From an uncultured Dehalococcoidia bacterium (GTDB lineage: Bacteria > Chloroflexota > Dehalococcoidia > Lucifugimonadales > UBA1127), in NCBI GenBank assembly GCA_913049785.1, contig CAJWXP010000001.1, positions 7,447-71,446 on the forward strand: 64,000 bases of DNA, written 5' to 3'. Below the pieces are notes generated by a model, which saw only the letters and a program-made list of their open reading frames with translations, was not told the origin of the DNA and ran no database searches. Below are positions 3,087 through 9,884 of this stretch, piece by piece. The position numbers were made by a program, and so were the translations under genes. Each line of letters begins with the position of its first letter. Position 1 is the stretch's first letter.

Positions 3087-3758
3087 TTAGATGCCGGTGA
3101 TGCGAATAGACGAGTGGGCCTTGTACGTCCTATTGATGTTCAGTAGCAAGGCTGTCAGGTCCTCTACATAGCGCGAGTTTGCCAGCCCGCCGCCGTTCAC
3201 CGCACGGACGCCCAGGATCATCTCTGCTAGCCCCATGATCCGGGTCTTGGCTGAGTCGTCGTCGCTGCACACGATAACATCGCAGTCAAGGCTCCGGTCG
3301 GGCACCATGAGGTCTGCTGCGCTGATGTTGTGGAACGCGCTGACGATCTTGGAGTTGGGCAAGATCTGCGCCGCCTCTTCCGCTGCGGAGCCTGCTTCCA
3401 CGATCGTTGCGCTCGCTCGACCTTTCTCGAAGGCCAGCGGCACCACCACGTCTACGATGACCTTGTTTTTCAGTGATTCCGTCAGGGCTTTCAACGTGTC
3501 CTTGTGGGCTGCGTACGGCACCGCGATGAACACCGCGTCGCCGAGTTGAGCGTAGCCGGTGTTCGCTGCTTCTTCGTTCGCGCCACCACGGATGTAGTCC
3601 TTGGGCAGTCCTGCCGGGAGCAGCTCCTGGACTTCTGTCGCCGCTGCGAGCCCTCGCTCGGCGTCTCGTGAACCGATAAAGACCCGCTCCCCCGCAATTG
3701 CGAATCGCAGGGCAAGCCCTTTACCTTCCGGACCTGTTCCCCCAATGAAGGAGATCAT
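3087..3758 (-). CDS. npdG: NADPH-dependent F420 reductase
   Basis: MISFIGGTGPEGKGLALR, GSRD, GSAAE, SAFHNISA, DVIVCSDD, LLLNINRTYK. Confidence 0.9.
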   Translation of the reverse strand: MISFIGGTGPEGKGLALRFAIAGERVFIGSRDAERGLAAATEVQELLPAGLPKDYIRGGANEEAANTGYAQLGDAVFIAVPYAAHKDTLKALTESLKNKVIVDVVVPLAFEKGRASATIVEAGSAAEEAAQILPNSKIVSAFHNISAADLMVPDRSLDCDVIVCSDDDSAKTRIMGLAEMILGVRAVNGGGLANSRYVEDLTALLLNINRTYKAHSSIRITGI

Positions 3759-3972
3759 CTGCACCTCGTCAATAGGTATTGTCGACCGACAGGATAGAGC
3801 AGCCACGTCGTTCTTGGAAGGGCGACACAATATCATCACCTTGACTGTGCCCGAACCGCAACGGATACTGACGCGGATTTCATCGCATGTGCCCCCTTGA
3901 CTCATGTGAAACCGGTGCATGGACTAGCAACAGCGGAGCACTAGGGATTTAGCAAACGGCAGGAGACACCAA

Positions 3973-5157
3973 ATGAAACGAAGCACAGACAGGATACTGA
4001 CCACCCACGCGGGCAAGCTGCCCAACCCCACAAACATGGCGGAAGTGCAGAAGGCCAAGGCTTCTGGGGACCAAGCAAAGATCGATGACGTGGTGACGGC
4101 GGGCATCCTGGAAGCGTTCGTCCGGCAGCGTGAACTGAAGAACGATATTCACAGCGACGGCGAGTTCTGGAAGAGTCGTGACGAGACCTACTTCGCAGGT
4201 AGGACTACGGGAGTGGAAGCCAAGCCGGTCACTCCTGACAACCCGGCGTCCATGCTGGCCAACATGCAGGAGCGGCACAGCGGGCAGTTCGATGACTTCT
4301 ATGCGGCGTTCGACCGTGTGGGCAACACGCCCCAACCGGGACAGGACAACCCCGCTCCAACGCAGCGATGGGTCATCACCGGCGCTATGGAGAACAAAGA
4401 CGAGGCGTCCAGCAAACACGAAGTCGCAGTGGTCAAGGCCGCGCTGGAAAAGGCGGGCGTCGACAAGGAGGACTTCTTCTATCCGGTGCTGAGTCCGGGC
4501 TGGCTGGGTCATTCCCTGTGGAACGAGTACTACAAGACCGAGGAAGAGTACGTCTATGCGATGGCTGAGTTCTATCGTCAGGACTACGAGGCCGTGGCGG
4601 AGGCTGGGTTCCTCCTGCAGATCGACGACCCTGATCTGGTGGACGCCTTCTGCATGTTCACCCCAGCTAAAAGCGTTGAGGAGTACCGGAAGTACGTCGA
4701 CCTTCGCATCGAGGCGTTGAACTACGGTCTGCGCAACGTTCCAGAAGAACAGATCCGCTACCACACCTGCTGGGGAAGCTGGCACACCCCTCATGTTACA
4801 GACCTCCCCTTTGAGCACACGGTGGACATCATGCTCAAGGTGAAGGCCCAGGCTTACTCCGTTGAGGCGGCGGACGCGCAGCACATCCTGGACTACAAGG
4901 TCTGGGACAGGATCAAATTCCCGGACGGCAAGATATACATCCCAGGCGTAGTAGCTCACAAGACCACCACGGTGGAGACGCCTGAGGTGGTGGCAGACCG
5001 CATCATCACCTACGCAAACATCATGGGTAAAGAGAACGTAATCGCTGGGACAGACTGCGGTTACGGCGGCAGGACGTATCCGGACATCGCGTGGGCCAAG
5101 ATGCGGGCAATGGCGGCGGGCGCTGAGCTAGCAACCAAGCAACTCTGGGGCAAGTAG
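3973..5157 (+). CDS. Cobalamin-independent methionine synthase II family (MetE catalytic-domain-like) protein
   Basis: RILTTHAGKLP, DGEF, LQIDDP, Zn ligands HTCWG...E...GTDCG. Confidence 0.85.
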   Translation: MKRSTDRILTTHAGKLPNPTNMAEVQKAKASGDQAKIDDVVTAGILEAFVRQRELKNDIHSDGEFWKSRDETYFAGRTTGVEAKPVTPDNPASMLANMQERHSGQFDDFYAAFDRVGNTPQPGQDNPAPTQRWVITGAMENKDEASSKHEVAVVKAALEKAGVDKEDFFYPVLSPGWLGHSLWNEYYKTEEEYVYAMAEFYRQDYEAVAEAGFLLQIDDPDLVDAFCMFTPAKSVEEYRKYVDLRIEALNYGLRNVPEEQIRYHTCWGSWHTPHVTDLPFEHTVDIMLKVKAQAYSVEAADAQHILDYKVWDRIKFPDGKIYIPGVVAHKTTTVETPEVVADRIITYANIMGKENVIAGTDCGYGGRTYPDIAWAKMRAMAAGAELATKQLWGK

Positions 5158-5273
5158 TCAGGGCTCGCCTGCAGGAACACTGAATTGCTAAGGCATCGCG
5201 TGAAAAAAGAACGATGCTGGAGTAAACTATCGCATCAAGGTTTTTAAACCCGGAATTCGGGGAGGAGGACGAT

Positions 5274-5669
5274 ATGGGACTGAGTCTGGATCACACCATT
5301 GTTCCGTCCAAGGGCAAAGAGGCAGCGGCAAAGTGGATGGCAGGTATCCTGGGAGTGGAGTACACCGGAATGTGGGGCCACTTCGCTCCAGTCAAAATCA
5401 ATGATCTCTTGAGCTTCGACTTCGATGACCGCGAGGAGTTTGAGTCTCACCACTATGCTCTACTGGCCACCGATCAAGAGTTCGATGAGATATTGGACAG
5501 GGTCAAGGGAGAGGGTATCCCGTACGGCAGTGGCCCCCGGGCACGCACAGATATGGAGATCAATCACCTCCACACCGGGCGTGGCTTCTACTTTGAGGAC
5601 AAGGATCGCCACGTTTGGGAAGTCATCACCCACACCTATGGAGAGTTTCCCGGCCAGTCGCAACCTTAG
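5274..5669 (+). CDS. VOC/glyoxalase family protein
   Basis: LDHTIVPS...HHYA...EFDEILDR...GRGFYFEDKDRHVWEVIT; GGAGG RBS. Confidence 0.88.
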   Translation: MGLSLDHTIVPSKGKEAAAKWMAGILGVEYTGMWGHFAPVKINDLLSFDFDDREEFESHHYALLATDQEFDEILDRVKGEGIPYGSGPRARTDMEINHLHTGRGFYFEDKDRHVWEVITHTYGEFPGQSQP

Positions 5670-5808: not shown

Positions 5809-6723
5809 ATGGAAGCGGGTACACGAGTGCTGGTACGTCGATCCCTGCTGGTGGTGTCACCACTGGACGATAGGGGACTTACGGACGCAGCCAATAGCGT
5901 AGCCGACGCCATAGTGGTCGATCTGACCTCCCGCGTTCCCAAACCCCAACGTGATGACGCACGCCGTGCCACTCCGTCCGCGGTGGAACGCCTGTCGGGC
6001 AGCGGCGCTGAGTTGCTTCTGTGGACGGACCCTAAGGGCGTTTCGGCTGACCTTGCGGCCTGCGGATTTGAAGCTATCACCGGAGTGGTTGCAGCCGTTG
6101 ATACACCTGAGGAAGCTAACAGTATCGACGAAGCCCTGGCTACGTGGGAATCGGCCAACAACATCCCAAACGGCACGCTGACCATGGAGCTTGTCCTTGC
6201 ATCTGCCAAAGCTGTGGGCAACGTAGACCAACTAGCGGCTGCCAGCCGTCGTATCGCGGCGATGGCCCTTGACGATGAAACGCTGCTGTGTGAAATGGGC
6301 GTTGCATCTTCTGGCCCTTCAGACAGGTTGCTCTATCAACGGGGTAAGATGGTCATGTCCGCCCGGTCGGCAGGGATACAGGTACACGCACTGGGGCATA
6401 TAGGCGACAGCCTCGTCGACCGCGCAGTCGCAGCTCGCCAGGCCGGACTTCGAGGGGCATTGTGCTTCAACTCGATTGAAGTCCTGGCTCTTAATACCGG
6501 TTTTAGTCCCCTTATCGAAGAAATCGAGGCCGCGAGACAAGTTCTGGAAGTCATGCAGGAAGCTGTCGATGGCGGTCGCGGCGCGGTTGCCGTGTCCAGC
6601 GGACAGATGGCAGACCTGGCCAACGTCCGGGGCGCGCAGGCCATCATCGCGTGGAGCGAAGCCGTCGAAGCCCGAGAATCTCTTCGCAGGCAGCCTGCCT
6701 CGTCGCAAATAAGCCTGGAGTGA
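5809..6723 (+). CDS. CitE/HpcH aldolase-citrate lyase family protein, degenerate active site
   Basis: RRSLL...ADAIVVDL fold signature, but DLED reads DLTS, RVN reads WTD, IE reads LA. Confidence 0.75.
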   Translation: MEAGTRVLVRRSLLVVSPLDDRGLTDAANSVADAIVVDLTSRVPKPQRDDARRATPSAVERLSGSGAELLLWTDPKGVSADLAACGFEAITGVVAAVDTPEEANSIDEALATWESANNIPNGTLTMELVLASAKAVGNVDQLAAASRRIAAMALDDETLLCEMGVASSGPSDRLLYQRGKMVMSARSAGIQVHALGHIGDSLVDRAVAARQAGLRGALCFNSIEVLALNTGFSPLIEEIEAARQVLEVMQEAVDGGRGAVAVSSGQMADLANVRGAQAIIAWSEAVEARESLRRQPASSQISLE

Positions 6724-6754
6724 TAGACAACTCGACTCAAGAAAGGGAAACCTT

Positions 6755-8263
6755 TTGGCTATAGAGGATTACATACAACCCGGCGAGCGTATCGTTGCTG
6801 AGTGCGCGGGGGTGTATGCCACAAACCATCGAATCATCCACTACACGCCGCGGTCAAAGAGCCTGACCTTCCGTGAGTATGCTTACCCCCAGATCACAGC
6901 GCTCAAGCTGGTGCCGAAAGCACGTTTCTCCACGGTGTTTCTTGGCTTCATCGTCACATTGCTCAGCCTTCTAGCCGGACCCGGCAGCCCCTTTCAAGTA
7001 GGTGTTGCAGCTCTGGGAGTGGGCGCAATGGGGATGGGGCTTCTCCTGGGTGACCGGTATCTGGAGGTCACCGGCGACGCGGACGACGGTAAACCTGCTC
7101 AGTGGCGACTGAGAGATGCTTCCGACAAAGAGAGCAAAGAGTTCCTAGCGGCTGCGCGAGCTGCGATGGCTGGCCCTCCTGCACTGGTTGCTGTAACACC
7201 CGCCATAGTCATAGAAACATCGATGTCTGGCACCGTGCCGAGATCAGTCCTATTGATTCCCGCCGACCAGCCTTCGCAAGTGCGATCCGCGCTGGAAAGC
7301 GTCGCGGACGTTGTTTGCATCGATATGGCTGACCTGGTGCATCCTGCCAACCGGGCCGCAGCCCGACTCATGATGTGGGGAGAGGTCACTGCGGCAGCAC
7401 GATCATCCAAGGGCGTTTGGGCACAAATCGGCGTGGAGTCGCTTCAAGAGGATCTGGAAGCCTGTGTGTGGCCCGGTCTTGGCGCTGTCGTCGCACACGT
7501 GGACTCCGCTGAGGCTGTACGCGGGTTGGACGATGCACTAGCCGCCTGGGAGAAGGAACGGGACGTGCAATCCCAAGTGAGCATCGTGGTTGCTCTGGAC
7601 ACCGCCGCTGCGGTCTGGTCTGTCCGCGAGACCCTTGTTGCAAGCCCAAGGGTATTGGCAGCGGCTGTCGGGGGGCAAGACCTCCTCCACCTGCCGGAAA
7701 CTATCTCACCGAGACAACTCTTCTCAGCTCAGGAATACATGCAGGGTCGGATAGCCGCTGGGGCGATCGAAGCCGGCGTGCCGATGCTGGGAAAGATCGG
7801 CACAGACATCGCGCTGGGACATCTGGCTGAGGCTTTAGGGACAATCGTAGATACTCGAATATTCCGGGCTGCACAGACGGCTCGCGGCGATGGGTTCCAC
7901 GGCGCAGTCACCACTCACCTTGAGGCCCTAAGCGCCTGCAACACAGCCTTCCCGCTTTCCGTGCCAATGCTGACCCCGCTACAACCACCGGCCCCATTGG
8001 CCGCGCATCTGCAACCCGTTGTGCCATCGCACTTTGAACTGGCGCAGATTGCTCCGCAAACAACTCCGACTCCCTCAGCTTATAACCCTGTAGTGCCGTC
8101 CCACTTCGACGTTAAACCACAAACAATGCCGCCGGTGCCCGAGAGATCGCGACCCGTCGCGGCTCCACGCGGGCTAAAGTCCTTGCCGCTGTCGCCCAGT
8201 AATTGGCGACCGGTAGTGCCGTCACATTTTGGGCGTGTCGTCCCACCTCCTGAGGCTGGCTAG
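6755..8263 (+). CDS. Fusion: N-terminal membrane-anchored domain + degenerate CitE-like domain + Pro-rich tail with 3x PVVPSHF
   Basis: Two hydrophobic helices at about aa 58-98; PRSVLLIPAD...ADVVCIDMAD...ACVWPGL CitE-like core; repeats at 8015, 8087, 8210. Confidence 0.75.
   Translation: MAIEDYIQPGERIVAECAGVYATNHRIIHYTPRSKSLTFREYAYPQITALKLVPKARFSTVFLGFIVTLLSLLAGPGSPFQVGVAALGVGAMGMGLLLGDRYLEVTGDADDGKPAQWRLRDASDKESKEFLAAARAAMAGPPALVAVTPAIVIETSMSGTVPRSVLLIPADQPSQVRSALESVADVVCIDMADLVHPANRAAARLMMWGEVTAAARSSKGVWAQIGVESLQEDLEACVWPGLGAVVAHVDSAEAVRGLDDALAAWEKERDVQSQVSIVVALDTAAAVWSVRETLVASPRVLAAAVGGQDLLHLPETISPRQLFSAQEYMQGRIAAGAIEAGVPMLGKIGTDIALGHLAEALGTIVDTRIFRAAQTARGDGFHGAVTTHLEALSACNTAFPLSVPMLTPLQPPAPLAAHLQPVVPSHFELAQIAPQTTPTPSAYNPVVPSHFDVKPQTMPPVPERSRPVAAPRGLKSLPLSPSNWRPVVPSHFGRVVPPPEAG
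8015..8230 (+). repeat. Three protein-level repeats PVVPSHF
   Basis: 8015-8035, 8087-8107, 8210-8230: identical peptide, differing synonymous codons. Confidence 0.9.
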
Positions 8264-8273
8264 GCTTCCGGCG

Positions 8274-9230
8274 ATGACCTTCGTCCGCCGCTCCATGCTG
8301 TTCACCCCTGCCAACGTGCGTCGCTTTGTGGAGGGCGTCTGGAAGCACAGCCCCGACATGGTGGTGCTTGACATTGAGGACTCGGTGGCGCCCGACCAGA
8401 AGCAGTCGGCGCAAGCCATGATGCAGGACGCCATACCCCTGGCTGCGCGAGGTGGCGCAGAGGTCGCAGTGCGCGTGAACAGTGACACCGTGGCAGAGGA
8501 CTGCAACGCCGCGATATGGCCCGGCTTGTGTGCCGTGGTACTCCCCAAGGCTGAAACTCAAGAGCAGATCACAACGTTGGACGCCCTACTCACCCGACTT
8601 GAAGCCGAGCGTGGCCTGCCTCCTATGTCTGTGGAGATCATGCCCATGATAGAGTCGGCGATAGGGGTCCAGAACGCCTACGCAATCGCCTCTGCCAGCA
8701 GGCGTATCAAATCGTTCGGCGTGCTGGGAGAAGCGGATCTCACGGCCGACCTGGGAGCATCGTTCGACGCACTGCAATCCCACGACGTGCTTGCGTACCC
8801 ACGTGGCGAGGTTGGCCTAGCAGCATGCGCTCTGGGACTGACGGTAAACGGTCGAGCGTGGACACCGGGCAAAGCGACCATCGCCGACTACGGCGACCTC
8901 GAAGCTCTAGAACGGTCTATGCGGGCTTCGTGGTTGGCGGGGTGTCGCAGCACCTTCTGCATCCATCCCCGACAGGTGGCCGCCGCAAACGAGCACCTGC
9001 GCCCATCGGCGTCAGACGTTGCTCAGGCTTCCGAGATGGTGCGAGCGTACACAGAGGCCGACCGGGCACGGCTGCCTTACGGCGTGCTTGACGGGTTGGT
9101 CGTTGACGCCAAAAGCGCCCAGACTGCTCAGAACATCATCGATTACGCGGCGGCGTGTGATGCCAAAGATGCAGCCAAGGCCAGCCGTCGCGCCAAGTTG
9201 GAAGTCGAGGCACGCAATGAGCCTGTATAA
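8274..9230 (+). CDS. CitE-like CoA ester lyase (malyl/citramalyl-CoA lyase family), intact motifs
   Basis: RRSMLFTPAN, LDIEDSV, VRVN, LPKAE, MIES, GEADL, CIHPRQV. Confidence 0.88.
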   Translation: MTFVRRSMLFTPANVRRFVEGVWKHSPDMVVLDIEDSVAPDQKQSAQAMMQDAIPLAARGGAEVAVRVNSDTVAEDCNAAIWPGLCAVVLPKAETQEQITTLDALLTRLEAERGLPPMSVEIMPMIESAIGVQNAYAIASASRRIKSFGVLGEADLTADLGASFDALQSHDVLAYPRGEVGLAACALGLTVNGRAWTPGKATIADYGDLEALERSMRASWLAGCRSTFCIHPRQVAAANEHLRPSASDVAQASEMVRAYTEADRARLPYGVLDGLVVDAKSAQTAQNIIDYAAACDAKDAAKASRRAKLEVEARNEPV

Positions 9231-9884
9231 AGCGGTGTTGTTTGATCTTGATGGCACTCTGATCACCGCGTTGCGGCGTTCGGACGTGTAGCCGGAGCAC
9301 TGCACGAGGACGAGCCAGCGATTCAAGCTGCACTATCACGGGAGAAGTTCGTTGAGCAGATGCTGACGTGGGACGAGGATGGATACGCTCCCAGGGAAGA
9401 TGTGTATAGTCTGGTTCTCAAATTATGGCCTGGCGTGACCCGCTCTCTCCAGGACCTGCTGGCATTCCACAACCGGACACAACCCGTCTCCACGTTGCCT
9501 GATGAACGAGTTGTGGTATTTTTGCGGGAGTTGCACGACGCCGGAGTGCGTTGGGGTGTTATCACTAATGGAGGCTCGACCCAACGACCAAAAATCGAAT
9601 CGTCAGGGTTTGGAGACATCATGCCGTTCGTCGTCGTGTCTGGCGAAGTTGGGTACGAGAAGCCAGACCCACGCATCTACCAGGACGGGTTGAAGCAGCT
9701 AGGCGATGTATCGGCCGCAAACACGCTCTTCGTGGGCGACAACGTCGAAACGGACATTGGTGGTGCGCAGTCGGCCGGAATGGCAACGGCGTGGGTGCGG
9801 CGAGGTAGCGAATGGCCAGCAGCCAATGAGCCGCCCAGCTACGAGGTCGACCATGTGGACGAGCTACGGTCAGTGTTGCTCTAG
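9217..9884 (+). pseudogene. HAD-family hydrolase with 1-nt frameshift near 9264
   Basis: MSLYKAVLFDLDGTLI in one frame; restoring one base (ATC [G]AC CGC GTT GCG...) joins it to the 9360-9884 ORF with ITNG, KPDPRIY, VGDNVETDI. Confidence 0.8.

Follow-up and report, generated by a model that had tools for sequence, protein, structure and literature searches.

Three adjacent CitE-type genes in a marine Dehalococcoidia genome are candidates for a membrane-anchored heterotrimeric lyase with active sites divided among paralogues

We analysed a stretch of 64,000 nucleotides (nt), hereafter the window, from an uncultured Dehalococcoidia bacterium (GenBank assembly GCA_913049785.1, contig CAJWXP010000001.1, positions 7,447 to 71,446), in which three neighbouring genes encode proteins of the CitE and malyl-coenzyme A (CoA) lyase type. 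These genes are g1 (5809-6723, 304 amino acids (aa)), g2 (6755-8263, 502 aa, TTG start) and g3 (8274-9230, 318 aa), all open reading frames (ORFs) on the forward strand, with gaps of 31 nt between g1 and g2 and 10 nt between g2 and g3. Each protein exceeds the gathering score of 25 bits for the Pfam family HpcH_HpaI (PF03328), with 50.6 bits for g1, 41.6 bits for g2 (residues 163-311) and 100.4 bits for g3, in agreement with a preliminary description of this DNA that had pointed to three adjacent and tightly spaced genes of this type. The best NCBIfam model for all three was citE (TIGR01588), with 75.2, 37.7 and 119.9 bits for g1, g2 and g3, none of which reaches the cut-off of 443.4. Scores of g3 against the models for L-malyl-CoA/beta-methylmalyl-CoA lyase (NF041626; 51 bits, cut-off 500) and RipC/Ccl (NF038242; 97.9 bits, cut-off 375) were also far too low for membership, which sets g3 apart from the known malyl-CoA lyases (MCLs). 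By sequence, the closest solved relatives are the MCL structures 4l9y and 5ugr (E values of 9e-22 and 6e-21, respectively, with g3), followed by CLYBL and CitE proteins. The likeness to a TIM barrel comes from a structural model for g2 and from sequence matches to 5ugr and 4l9y for g1 and g3.

When g2 was used as the query, its sole matches in the window's own genome (2.15 Mb, 93% complete) were g1, g2 and g3, and therefore chance is excluded as an explanation for three CitE-type neighbours. Five other PF03328 matches were found in this genome, namely a pyruvate kinase and four ORFs of 249-289 aa without the C-terminal lid, which in our reading are HpcH-type aldolases. Neither CitD nor CitF was present among the annotated ORFs of the window, whose annotation covers positions 1-42142; a genome-wide search for both was not made. 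A scan for promoters and terminators gave counts not above those of shuffled sequences. Near-identical DNA occurs in seawater, marine and cold-seep metagenomes from 11 studies, and no RNA dataset is among the listed holders of such DNA.

The catalytic set of the family was taken from the MCL of Rhodobacter sphaeroides. The structural study of this enzyme (PMC3832036) names Asp42, Glu44 and Asp45 of a DxED motif, Arg76, the Mg ligands Glu141 and Asp168, and Asp299 of a C-terminal lid. It also states that activity requires the trimer, since each lid covers the active site of the neighbouring chain and supplies Asp299 (MCL-R) to it. In the thioesterase group a lid Glu replaces this Asp. Counting along the 4l9y chain against the numbering in that text places Asp299 in the motif G-R-L-V-D-I-A. 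A position in the hairpin that precedes the IHP motif was ruled out by the same count, which puts the catalytic Asp in the C-terminal G..L.D.A motif.

Measured against this set, a complete catalytic equipment within one chain is found in g3 and in neither g1 nor g2. The complete CitE-like lyase subunit g3 carries D33-I-E35-D36, R67 (in VRVN), E127 (IES), D155 (GEAD), H231-P232 and the lid residue D278, and all nine positions (D33, E35, D36, R67, E127, D155, H231, P232 and D278) are the same in all 15 aligned sequences.

In g1, a dead barrel is joined to what appears to be a live lid. Its DxED motif reads D38-L-T40-S41, the Arg is replaced by W72 (WTD), the Mg ligand Glu by A133 (LAS) and the Mg ligand Asp by T158, so that only D38 and the lid residue D269 remain of the catalytic residues. 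The lid hairpin, residues 252-278 (GGRGAVAVSSGQMADLAN; 6562-6642, forward strand), carries D269, which alignment to 5ugr and 4l9y makes the equivalent of MCL Asp299. Across 27 g1 relatives, both Mg ligands are gone in 27/27, the Trp at position 72 is found in 26/27, and the lid Asp together with the Gly preceding it is kept in 27/27. The lid is also the most conserved part of g1 (0.82, vs 0.69 for the barrel). Since the family's catalytic lid Asp is retained at D269, g1 is not fully degenerate, and because this residue is kept in every relative while the barrel is dead, g1 most likely supplies a catalytic residue to another chain.

The second gene combines a lid-less CitE-like barrel with a predicted membrane anchor. 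An alignment-based model of g2 (mean predicted local distance difference test score (pLDDT) of 80.5) has a confident N-terminal part (residues 1-140), a disordered linker (143-157), a TIM barrel (164-398) and a disordered tail. The barrel, residues about 160-400 (7232-7954), contains D190, A192, D193, Q224, D282, D309 and H388, and reads D190-M-A-D at the DxED motif, Q224 (AQI) at the position of the Arg and D282 (LDT) at the first Mg ligand, so that an Asp stands in place of the Glu ligand; the second Mg ligand is kept (D309) and there is no lid. The best Foldseek match of the g2 model was the MCL 4l9y (E 5e-15, template modelling (TM) score 0.63-0.73 by target). Of 40 g2 relatives, 34 have the Arg, 31 an acidic residue (Glu or Asp) as the first Mg ligand and 38 an Asp as the second, and just one has the Glu of DxED. 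The Gln at the Arg position is unique to the window among these 40. The preliminary description had assigned the full catalytic set to g3 only and had read DLTS, WTD and LAS in g1 and DMAD, AQI and LDT in g2, all of which is correct. Its term "two pseudo-enzymes" needs revision, since g1 keeps its lid Asp throughout and the g2 barrel is only half degenerate in most relatives. As read from the sequences, the pattern is one of complementary loss and not of two equally dead copies.

The N-terminal region of g2, residues 1-140 (6755-7174), is predicted to be a PH-like domain with an inserted membrane hairpin. Folded alone (pLDDT 83), it forms five strands, two long hydrophobic helices, two further strands and a C-terminal helix, and in this model residues 1-140 satisfy the PH fold of seven strands and a C-terminal helix. 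Foldseek matched the domain to the bacterial PH domain 3dcx (E 8.7e-4, TM 0.51/0.62) and also to 3hsa, and VIA-align returned PH/GRAM-like structures with Z up to 10.6 and a root-mean-square deviation of 2.3 over 92 residues (Z 8.7 for 3hsa). No Pfam family was found for the window's domain at E values up to 10, and two of four scanned relatives gave stray hits only (DUF4231, E 0.036; DsbD_N, E 0.13). Stand-alone look-alikes of 140-160 aa exist in the Atlas, with DUF6232 as a lead only. The hydrophobic two-helix hairpin (residues 58-97, 6926-7045; helices 58-74 and 79-97) splits the PH-like domain, and the predicted membrane tethering of g2 rests on these two helices.

The lid position of g2 is occupied by a proline-rich tail (7955-8260) that is predicted to be disordered, with pLDDT below 50 for residues 427-498. 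Three copies of the heptapeptide PVVPSHF lie in this tail (8015-8035, 8087-8107 and 8210-8230), and a six-frame translation of the genome contains no further copy. The g2 orthologues of the same genus carry WQPVVPSHFGI in one to three copies. A docking function for PVVPSHF is possible.

Eleven other loci show the same gene order, g1-g2-g3; nine belong to the window's genus and two to a second Dehalococcoidia genus (labelled g7), and two more trio loci are interrupted by contig ends. Full-length relatives of g2, defined by an E value of 1e-47 or lower with the N-terminal domain covered, share 28-81% identity with it and are found in 11/12 other genomes of the same genus (the exception is 84% complete), in 6/8 genomes of the family's other genera and in 0/20 from the order's other families. 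Orthologues of g1 (E below 1e-55) were found only in the two trio genera. The ratio of nonsynonymous to synonymous substitution rates (dN/dS; Nei-Gojobori method, eight pairs spanning dS 0.25-1.7) was 0.14-0.33 for g1, 0.19-0.28 for g2 and 0.11-0.38 for g3. All three genes are under purifying selection, and the combination of catalytic loss with purifying selection, expected of pseudo-enzyme subunits in a heteromeric enzyme, is seen in both g1 and g2. In contigs from four marine sequencing runs of four studies (one contig spans the whole stretch), g1-g3 differ from the window by substitutions only, with no insertions or deletions (indels). A search of a contig collection with g2 alone returned no relative.

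Assembly of the three proteins was modelled with g3, residues 150-405 of g2 and g1 as the scored partner, using a separate alignment for each chain, in three runs and with three controls. The interaction prediction score from aligned errors (ipSAE) was 0.71, 0.76 and 0.70 in the three runs and 0.00 in the three controls. The mark of 0.71 is reached by 116/157 solved complexes and 2/215 mismatched pairs, a calibration from which this job departs in having three chains and author-made alignments. The runs had at least 94% of contacts in common, and the pLDDT of the partner was at least 84. In the model, residues 252-259 and 264-278 of g1, which form the lid hairpin with D269, contact residues 12, 36-42, 127-133, 152-166, 200-208 and 230-231 of g3, and the g3 residues under the lid are those of the active site, namely the DxED, Glu127, Asp155 and His231 regions. 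Contact between g2 and g1 is made by core helices only (327-339 and 378-380), with 14 listed residues, and conservation at the predicted g2 interface does not exceed that of the remaining barrel (0.67 vs 0.66). The model supports binding among g1, g2 and g3 as a prediction. The trio is thus retained by relatives, its degenerate copies do not evolve neutrally and a hetero-interface is predicted (0.71, vs 0.00 for the best control), three points on any of which the preliminary description had been prepared to give up its proposal.

Taken together, these data favour, at a probability of roughly one half, a reading in which g1, g2 and g3 are the A, B and C chains of a heterotrimeric CitE-type beta-hydroxyacyl-CoA lyase with composite active sites, anchored through g2. 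The enzyme would be a lyase or a lyase/thioesterase, possibly a dimer of trimers. In this family, each active site is built from the barrel of one chain, with DxED, Arg and the Glu and Asp that bind Mg2+, together with the C-terminal lid of a neighbour, which provides the catalytic Asp. The subunits would then have different roles, with g3 contributing both barrel and lid, g1 acting as a lid donor and g2 as an anchor with a partly kept barrel. The g1 lid would close the g3 barrel, giving the one site that would certainly be complete, while the g3 lid would close the g2 barrel to give a second, weakened or ligand-binding site. This second site is probably dead in the window genome, because the g2 Arg is replaced by Gln. 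The absent lid of g2 would face the dead g1 barrel, and the ring so formed would be the sole arrangement that wastes no intact part. We place the enzyme, tentatively, at the cytoplasmic side of the membrane. What the models predict is the fold, the hairpin in the membrane and the contact of the g1 lid with the g3 site; ring closure, stoichiometry, the cytoplasmic side and catalysis are what we infer from them. The preliminary description had seen the degenerate copies as structural or regulatory subunits that tether the lyase to the membrane. Assembly and the g2 hairpin are indeed predicted, but with D269 in its lid g1 would not be merely structural or regulatory.

A second kind of trio bears on this interpretation. 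Gene sets that we call X2-X3-X1 were found in five other Dehalococcoidia genomes, namely G031 and four among 301 genomes sampled from the class (loci L019:4480-10039, L041, L042, L043 and L044). In four of the five loci the trio lies beside two to four genes for family III CoA-transferases, with no match seen in L043; L042, with an extra copy of X3, is cut off by a contig end. Of the three chains, X3 is canonical. In X1, the DxED Glu is missing in 5/5, the Mg ligand Glu in 4/5 and the Mg ligand Asp in 5/5, and the lid position is acidic (Asp or Glu) in the four complete sequences; two X1 proteins carry the Glu, as in thioesterases. X2 is nearly canonical but has no IHP motif, and its lid Asp is also missing in two genomes. 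A maximum-likelihood tree (42 rows, quick search, midpoint root) grouped g3 with X3 (Shimodaira-Hasegawa-like approximate likelihood ratio test (SH-aLRT) 97) and g1 with X1 (87).

The combination of a dead barrel with a live lid extends beyond these genomes. A search of 1.84 billion representatives with a profile of the g1 family gave 10,739 proteins at E<=1e-3 and 557 at E<=1e-30. The best 150 of the 10,739 include three single-chain fusions of an X2-like and an X3-like part, 612-645 aa in length (P0076, P0077 and P0089). P0076 comes from a metagenome-assembled genome of Gaiellaceae, and a locus search with it returned an unrelated Devosia locus only. With the three fusions cut in two, the best 150 representatives gave 153 domain rows, which were scored at four barrel residues (the Glu of DxED, the Arg, the Glu and the Asp). 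All four are kept in 114 rows and at most one in 29. At the lid position, these 29 barrel-dead rows have Asp or Glu in 24 and a gap in 5, and no other residue. Trp stands at the Arg position, as in g1, in 9/29; the other twenty belong to other clusters, one of them with a betaproteobacterial member.

Several observations weigh against the heterotrimer. The ipSAE pass may come from the likeness of these chains to solved CitE/MCL homotrimers; the controls were unrelated proteins and not the chains' own homotrimers, and the three runs differ by seed only, so that the choice between the two possible ring orders was weakly tested. Contact of the g3 lid with g2 is absent from the reported contacts and follows only from ring closure. 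Neither g1 nor g3 adjoins the g2-like genes of genera g4-g6 of the family (loci L015-L018), and g1 orthologues were not found there with the g1 query; g2 can therefore exist outside the trio, which is not obligatory for it. In the tree g2 is a long branch without a settled place, so that its equivalence to X2 is at most putative. The g3 orthologues of genus g7 (L013:6017-6910 and L014) are about 30 residues shorter in the barrel, in the part that links the region of the seventh helix to the IHP strand, although they still retain every catalytic residue. The g1 pocket has conserved residues of its own (D38, with W72 in 26/27, D74 in 25/27 and D155 in 27/27), and could equally well be a new ligand site. 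The conserved neighbours of the trio, an F420/NADP oxidoreductase-like protein, a class III aminotransferase and a threonine synthase-like pyridoxal phosphate (PLP) enzyme, point to no substrate. Finally, a family III CoA-transferase (PF02515) was not found in the window's 93%-complete genome, for which reason the CoA-transferase link of the X-type loci is not transferable to the trio.

An alternative is a mixed oligomer of g1 and g3 alone, in which g1 would donate the lid and g3 the active barrel, with g2 as a separate membrane protein that acts by itself or with other partners and has only the operon in common with them. The sister relation of the g1+X1 and g3+X3 groups, beside the unplaced long branch of g2, fits this arrangement, as do the g2-like genes without g1 or g3 at L015-L018, two of them beside MoxR/DUF58 genes, and the mere 14 listed residues through which g2 meets g1 in the model. 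However, in every locus of the two genera g2 stands between g1 and g3 (in the window at 31 and 10 nt from them), and a lid-less barrel that keeps its Arg and Mg ligands in most relatives makes sense only if another chain provides the lid. The X-type trios likewise have three chains, and X2-X3 fusions exist. On balance we regard a two-chain oligomer as unlikely.

It is also rather improbable, in our view to about the same degree, that the three proteins form separate homo-oligomers, with g3 as an ordinary lyase and g1 and g2 serving new non-lyase or ligand-binding functions in the same pathway. Every solved family member that was matched has a single CitE-type molecule name, MCLs are stated to be homo-oligomers in PMC3832036, the conservation of the g1 pocket would suit a function of its own, and purifying selection by itself is no proof of assembly. 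In a g1 homotrimer, however, the barrel opposite the invariant lid Asp would lack the Arg and the Mg ligands, and yet this Asp is kept in 27/27 relatives and its position is acidic in 24/24 ungapped barrel-dead rows; a g2 homotrimer would consist of barrels without any lid. That g1 and g2 are functionless, decaying duplicates is very improbable: catalytic residues are lost and a broken gene for a HAD-family hydrolase lies close by in the window, but dN/dS is low (0.14-0.33) at dS of 0.25-1.7, the frames are kept open at 28-81% aa identity across 40 g2 and 27 g1 relatives, there are zero indels in four independent marine runs, and the HAD break is itself absent from three of the four.

The heterotrimer can be stated in a bolder and wider form, which we offer tentatively and consider somewhat more likely wrong than right. 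The trio would then be a C-C lyase that works only as an ABC heterotrimer, its active site divided among a dead-barrel donor of the lid Asp, a lid-less barrel joined to a PH domain in the membrane and one complete chain. It would have one or two composite sites held at the membrane, and the conserved PVVPSHF would dock a further partner or the vacant g1 face. Mixed CitE trimers, represented by the X trios, the X2-X3 fusions and about twenty further barrel-dead, lid-live clusters, would be a widespread but overlooked class and would reach into Actinomycetota and Betaproteobacteria.

The fold, the chemistry and the lid-swap principle are already known from CitE/MCL enzymes. The MCLs of R. sphaeroides and Chloroflexus aurantiacus (4l9y, 4l7z; PMC3832036) have the same TIM barrel, the swapped C-terminal lid and the catalytic set. 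They are homohexamers of one complete soluble chain, whereas here these parts are spread over three paralogues, one of them predicted to be membrane-anchored.

The wider family offers partial parallels. To our knowledge, the solved members beyond the MCLs are homo-oligomers, and CitE-like lyases (malyl-CoA, citramalyl-CoA and HMG-CoA lyases, CLYBL and Mycobacterium CitE) are regarded as homo-oligomers of one complete chain. In citrate lyase, CitE acts inside a hetero-oligomer with CitD and CitF, but there its partners are unrelated to it (an acyl carrier and a transferase), whereas here they are CitE paralogues. Two CitE-like paralogues also serve one pathway in R. sphaeroides, where malyl-CoA lyase and malyl-CoA thioesterase act as separate homo-oligomers and each is complete, in contrast to g1 with its missing Arg and Mg ligands. 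Trypanosomatid prozymes, known for S-adenosylmethionine (AdoMet) decarboxylase and deoxyhypusine synthase, are impaired paralogues under selection that form obligate hetero-oligomers with the active copy, with shared or interface sites. They differ from the trio in fold and kingdom, and here there are three chains, of which the dead one would supply a catalytic residue and not only activate. Bacterial PH-domain proteins (DUF1696; 3dcx and 3hsa) share the fold of the g2 N-terminal domain, which differs from them in having no sequence-family hit, in the hairpin inserted between strands 5 and 6 and in its fusion to an enzyme barrel.

In the literature searched, whose coverage did not extend to subscription journals, we found no description of mixed CitE-type oligomers, nor of an active site divided among three paralogous chains of which one bears a membrane-inserted PH domain. 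Public records label the proteins discussed here generically, with "citrate lyase subunit beta" as the annotation for every copy. If the heterotrimer is real, many proteins so annotated would be lid donors or anchors and not enzymes. It would also provide a clean bacterial case of complementary degeneration, from a homotrimer to an obligate heterotrimer, and would locate a CoA-ester lyase at the membrane in abundant marine Dehalococcoidia. A role of the trio as a replacement for malate synthase was considered and ruled out by a canonical malate synthase barrel in the genome (G000:C11).

The surroundings of the trio are well conserved. In 10/10 examined loci it is flanked by a divergent F420/NADP oxidoreductase-like gene on one side and by class III aminotransferase and threonine synthase-like genes on the other. 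In the window, the F420-dependent NADP oxidoreductase-like gene lies upstream on the reverse strand (3090-3920; PF03807, E 3.8e-13). It directly precedes g1, on the opposite strand, in 9/10 related loci, and in L026 a glyoxalase-like gene lies between. MetE-like (PF01717, weak match) and glyoxalase-like genes occupy this place in the window (3973-5669). Apart from the glyoxalase-like gene of L026, neither was seen at that spot in the 8 other loci.

Downstream, the gene for the HAD-family hydrolase (9217-9884, forward strand; PF00702 and PF13419 on 9360-9881) begins with an ATG at 9217 that overlaps the end of g3, whose stop codon is at 9228-9230, by 14 nt. The preliminary description had reported this overlap, which stands, but reading in three frames places a frameshift in the window at about 9264, just past motif I (DLDGTLI). 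Since an extra G follows 9264 in the contigs of three of the four marine runs, and the orthologue in the closest relative, L026, is one open frame, the sequence comparison makes the break a strain variant or an assembly error.

Two further observations concern gene content. At two of the loci with a lone g2-like gene, from two other genera of the family (L015:5259-7460 and L017:201-3778), that gene is directly followed by genes for a MoxR-type AAA+ ATPase, a DUF58 protein and, in L017, a DUF4129 protein. Farther along the window, positions 20911-42142 are rich in genes for oxidative catabolism, with two LigXa-type Rieske oxygenases, a luciferase-like monooxygenase, an amidohydrolase and an FAA hydrolase, and also encode E1 dehydrogenase subunits, MFS and EamA transporters and solute-binding proteins.

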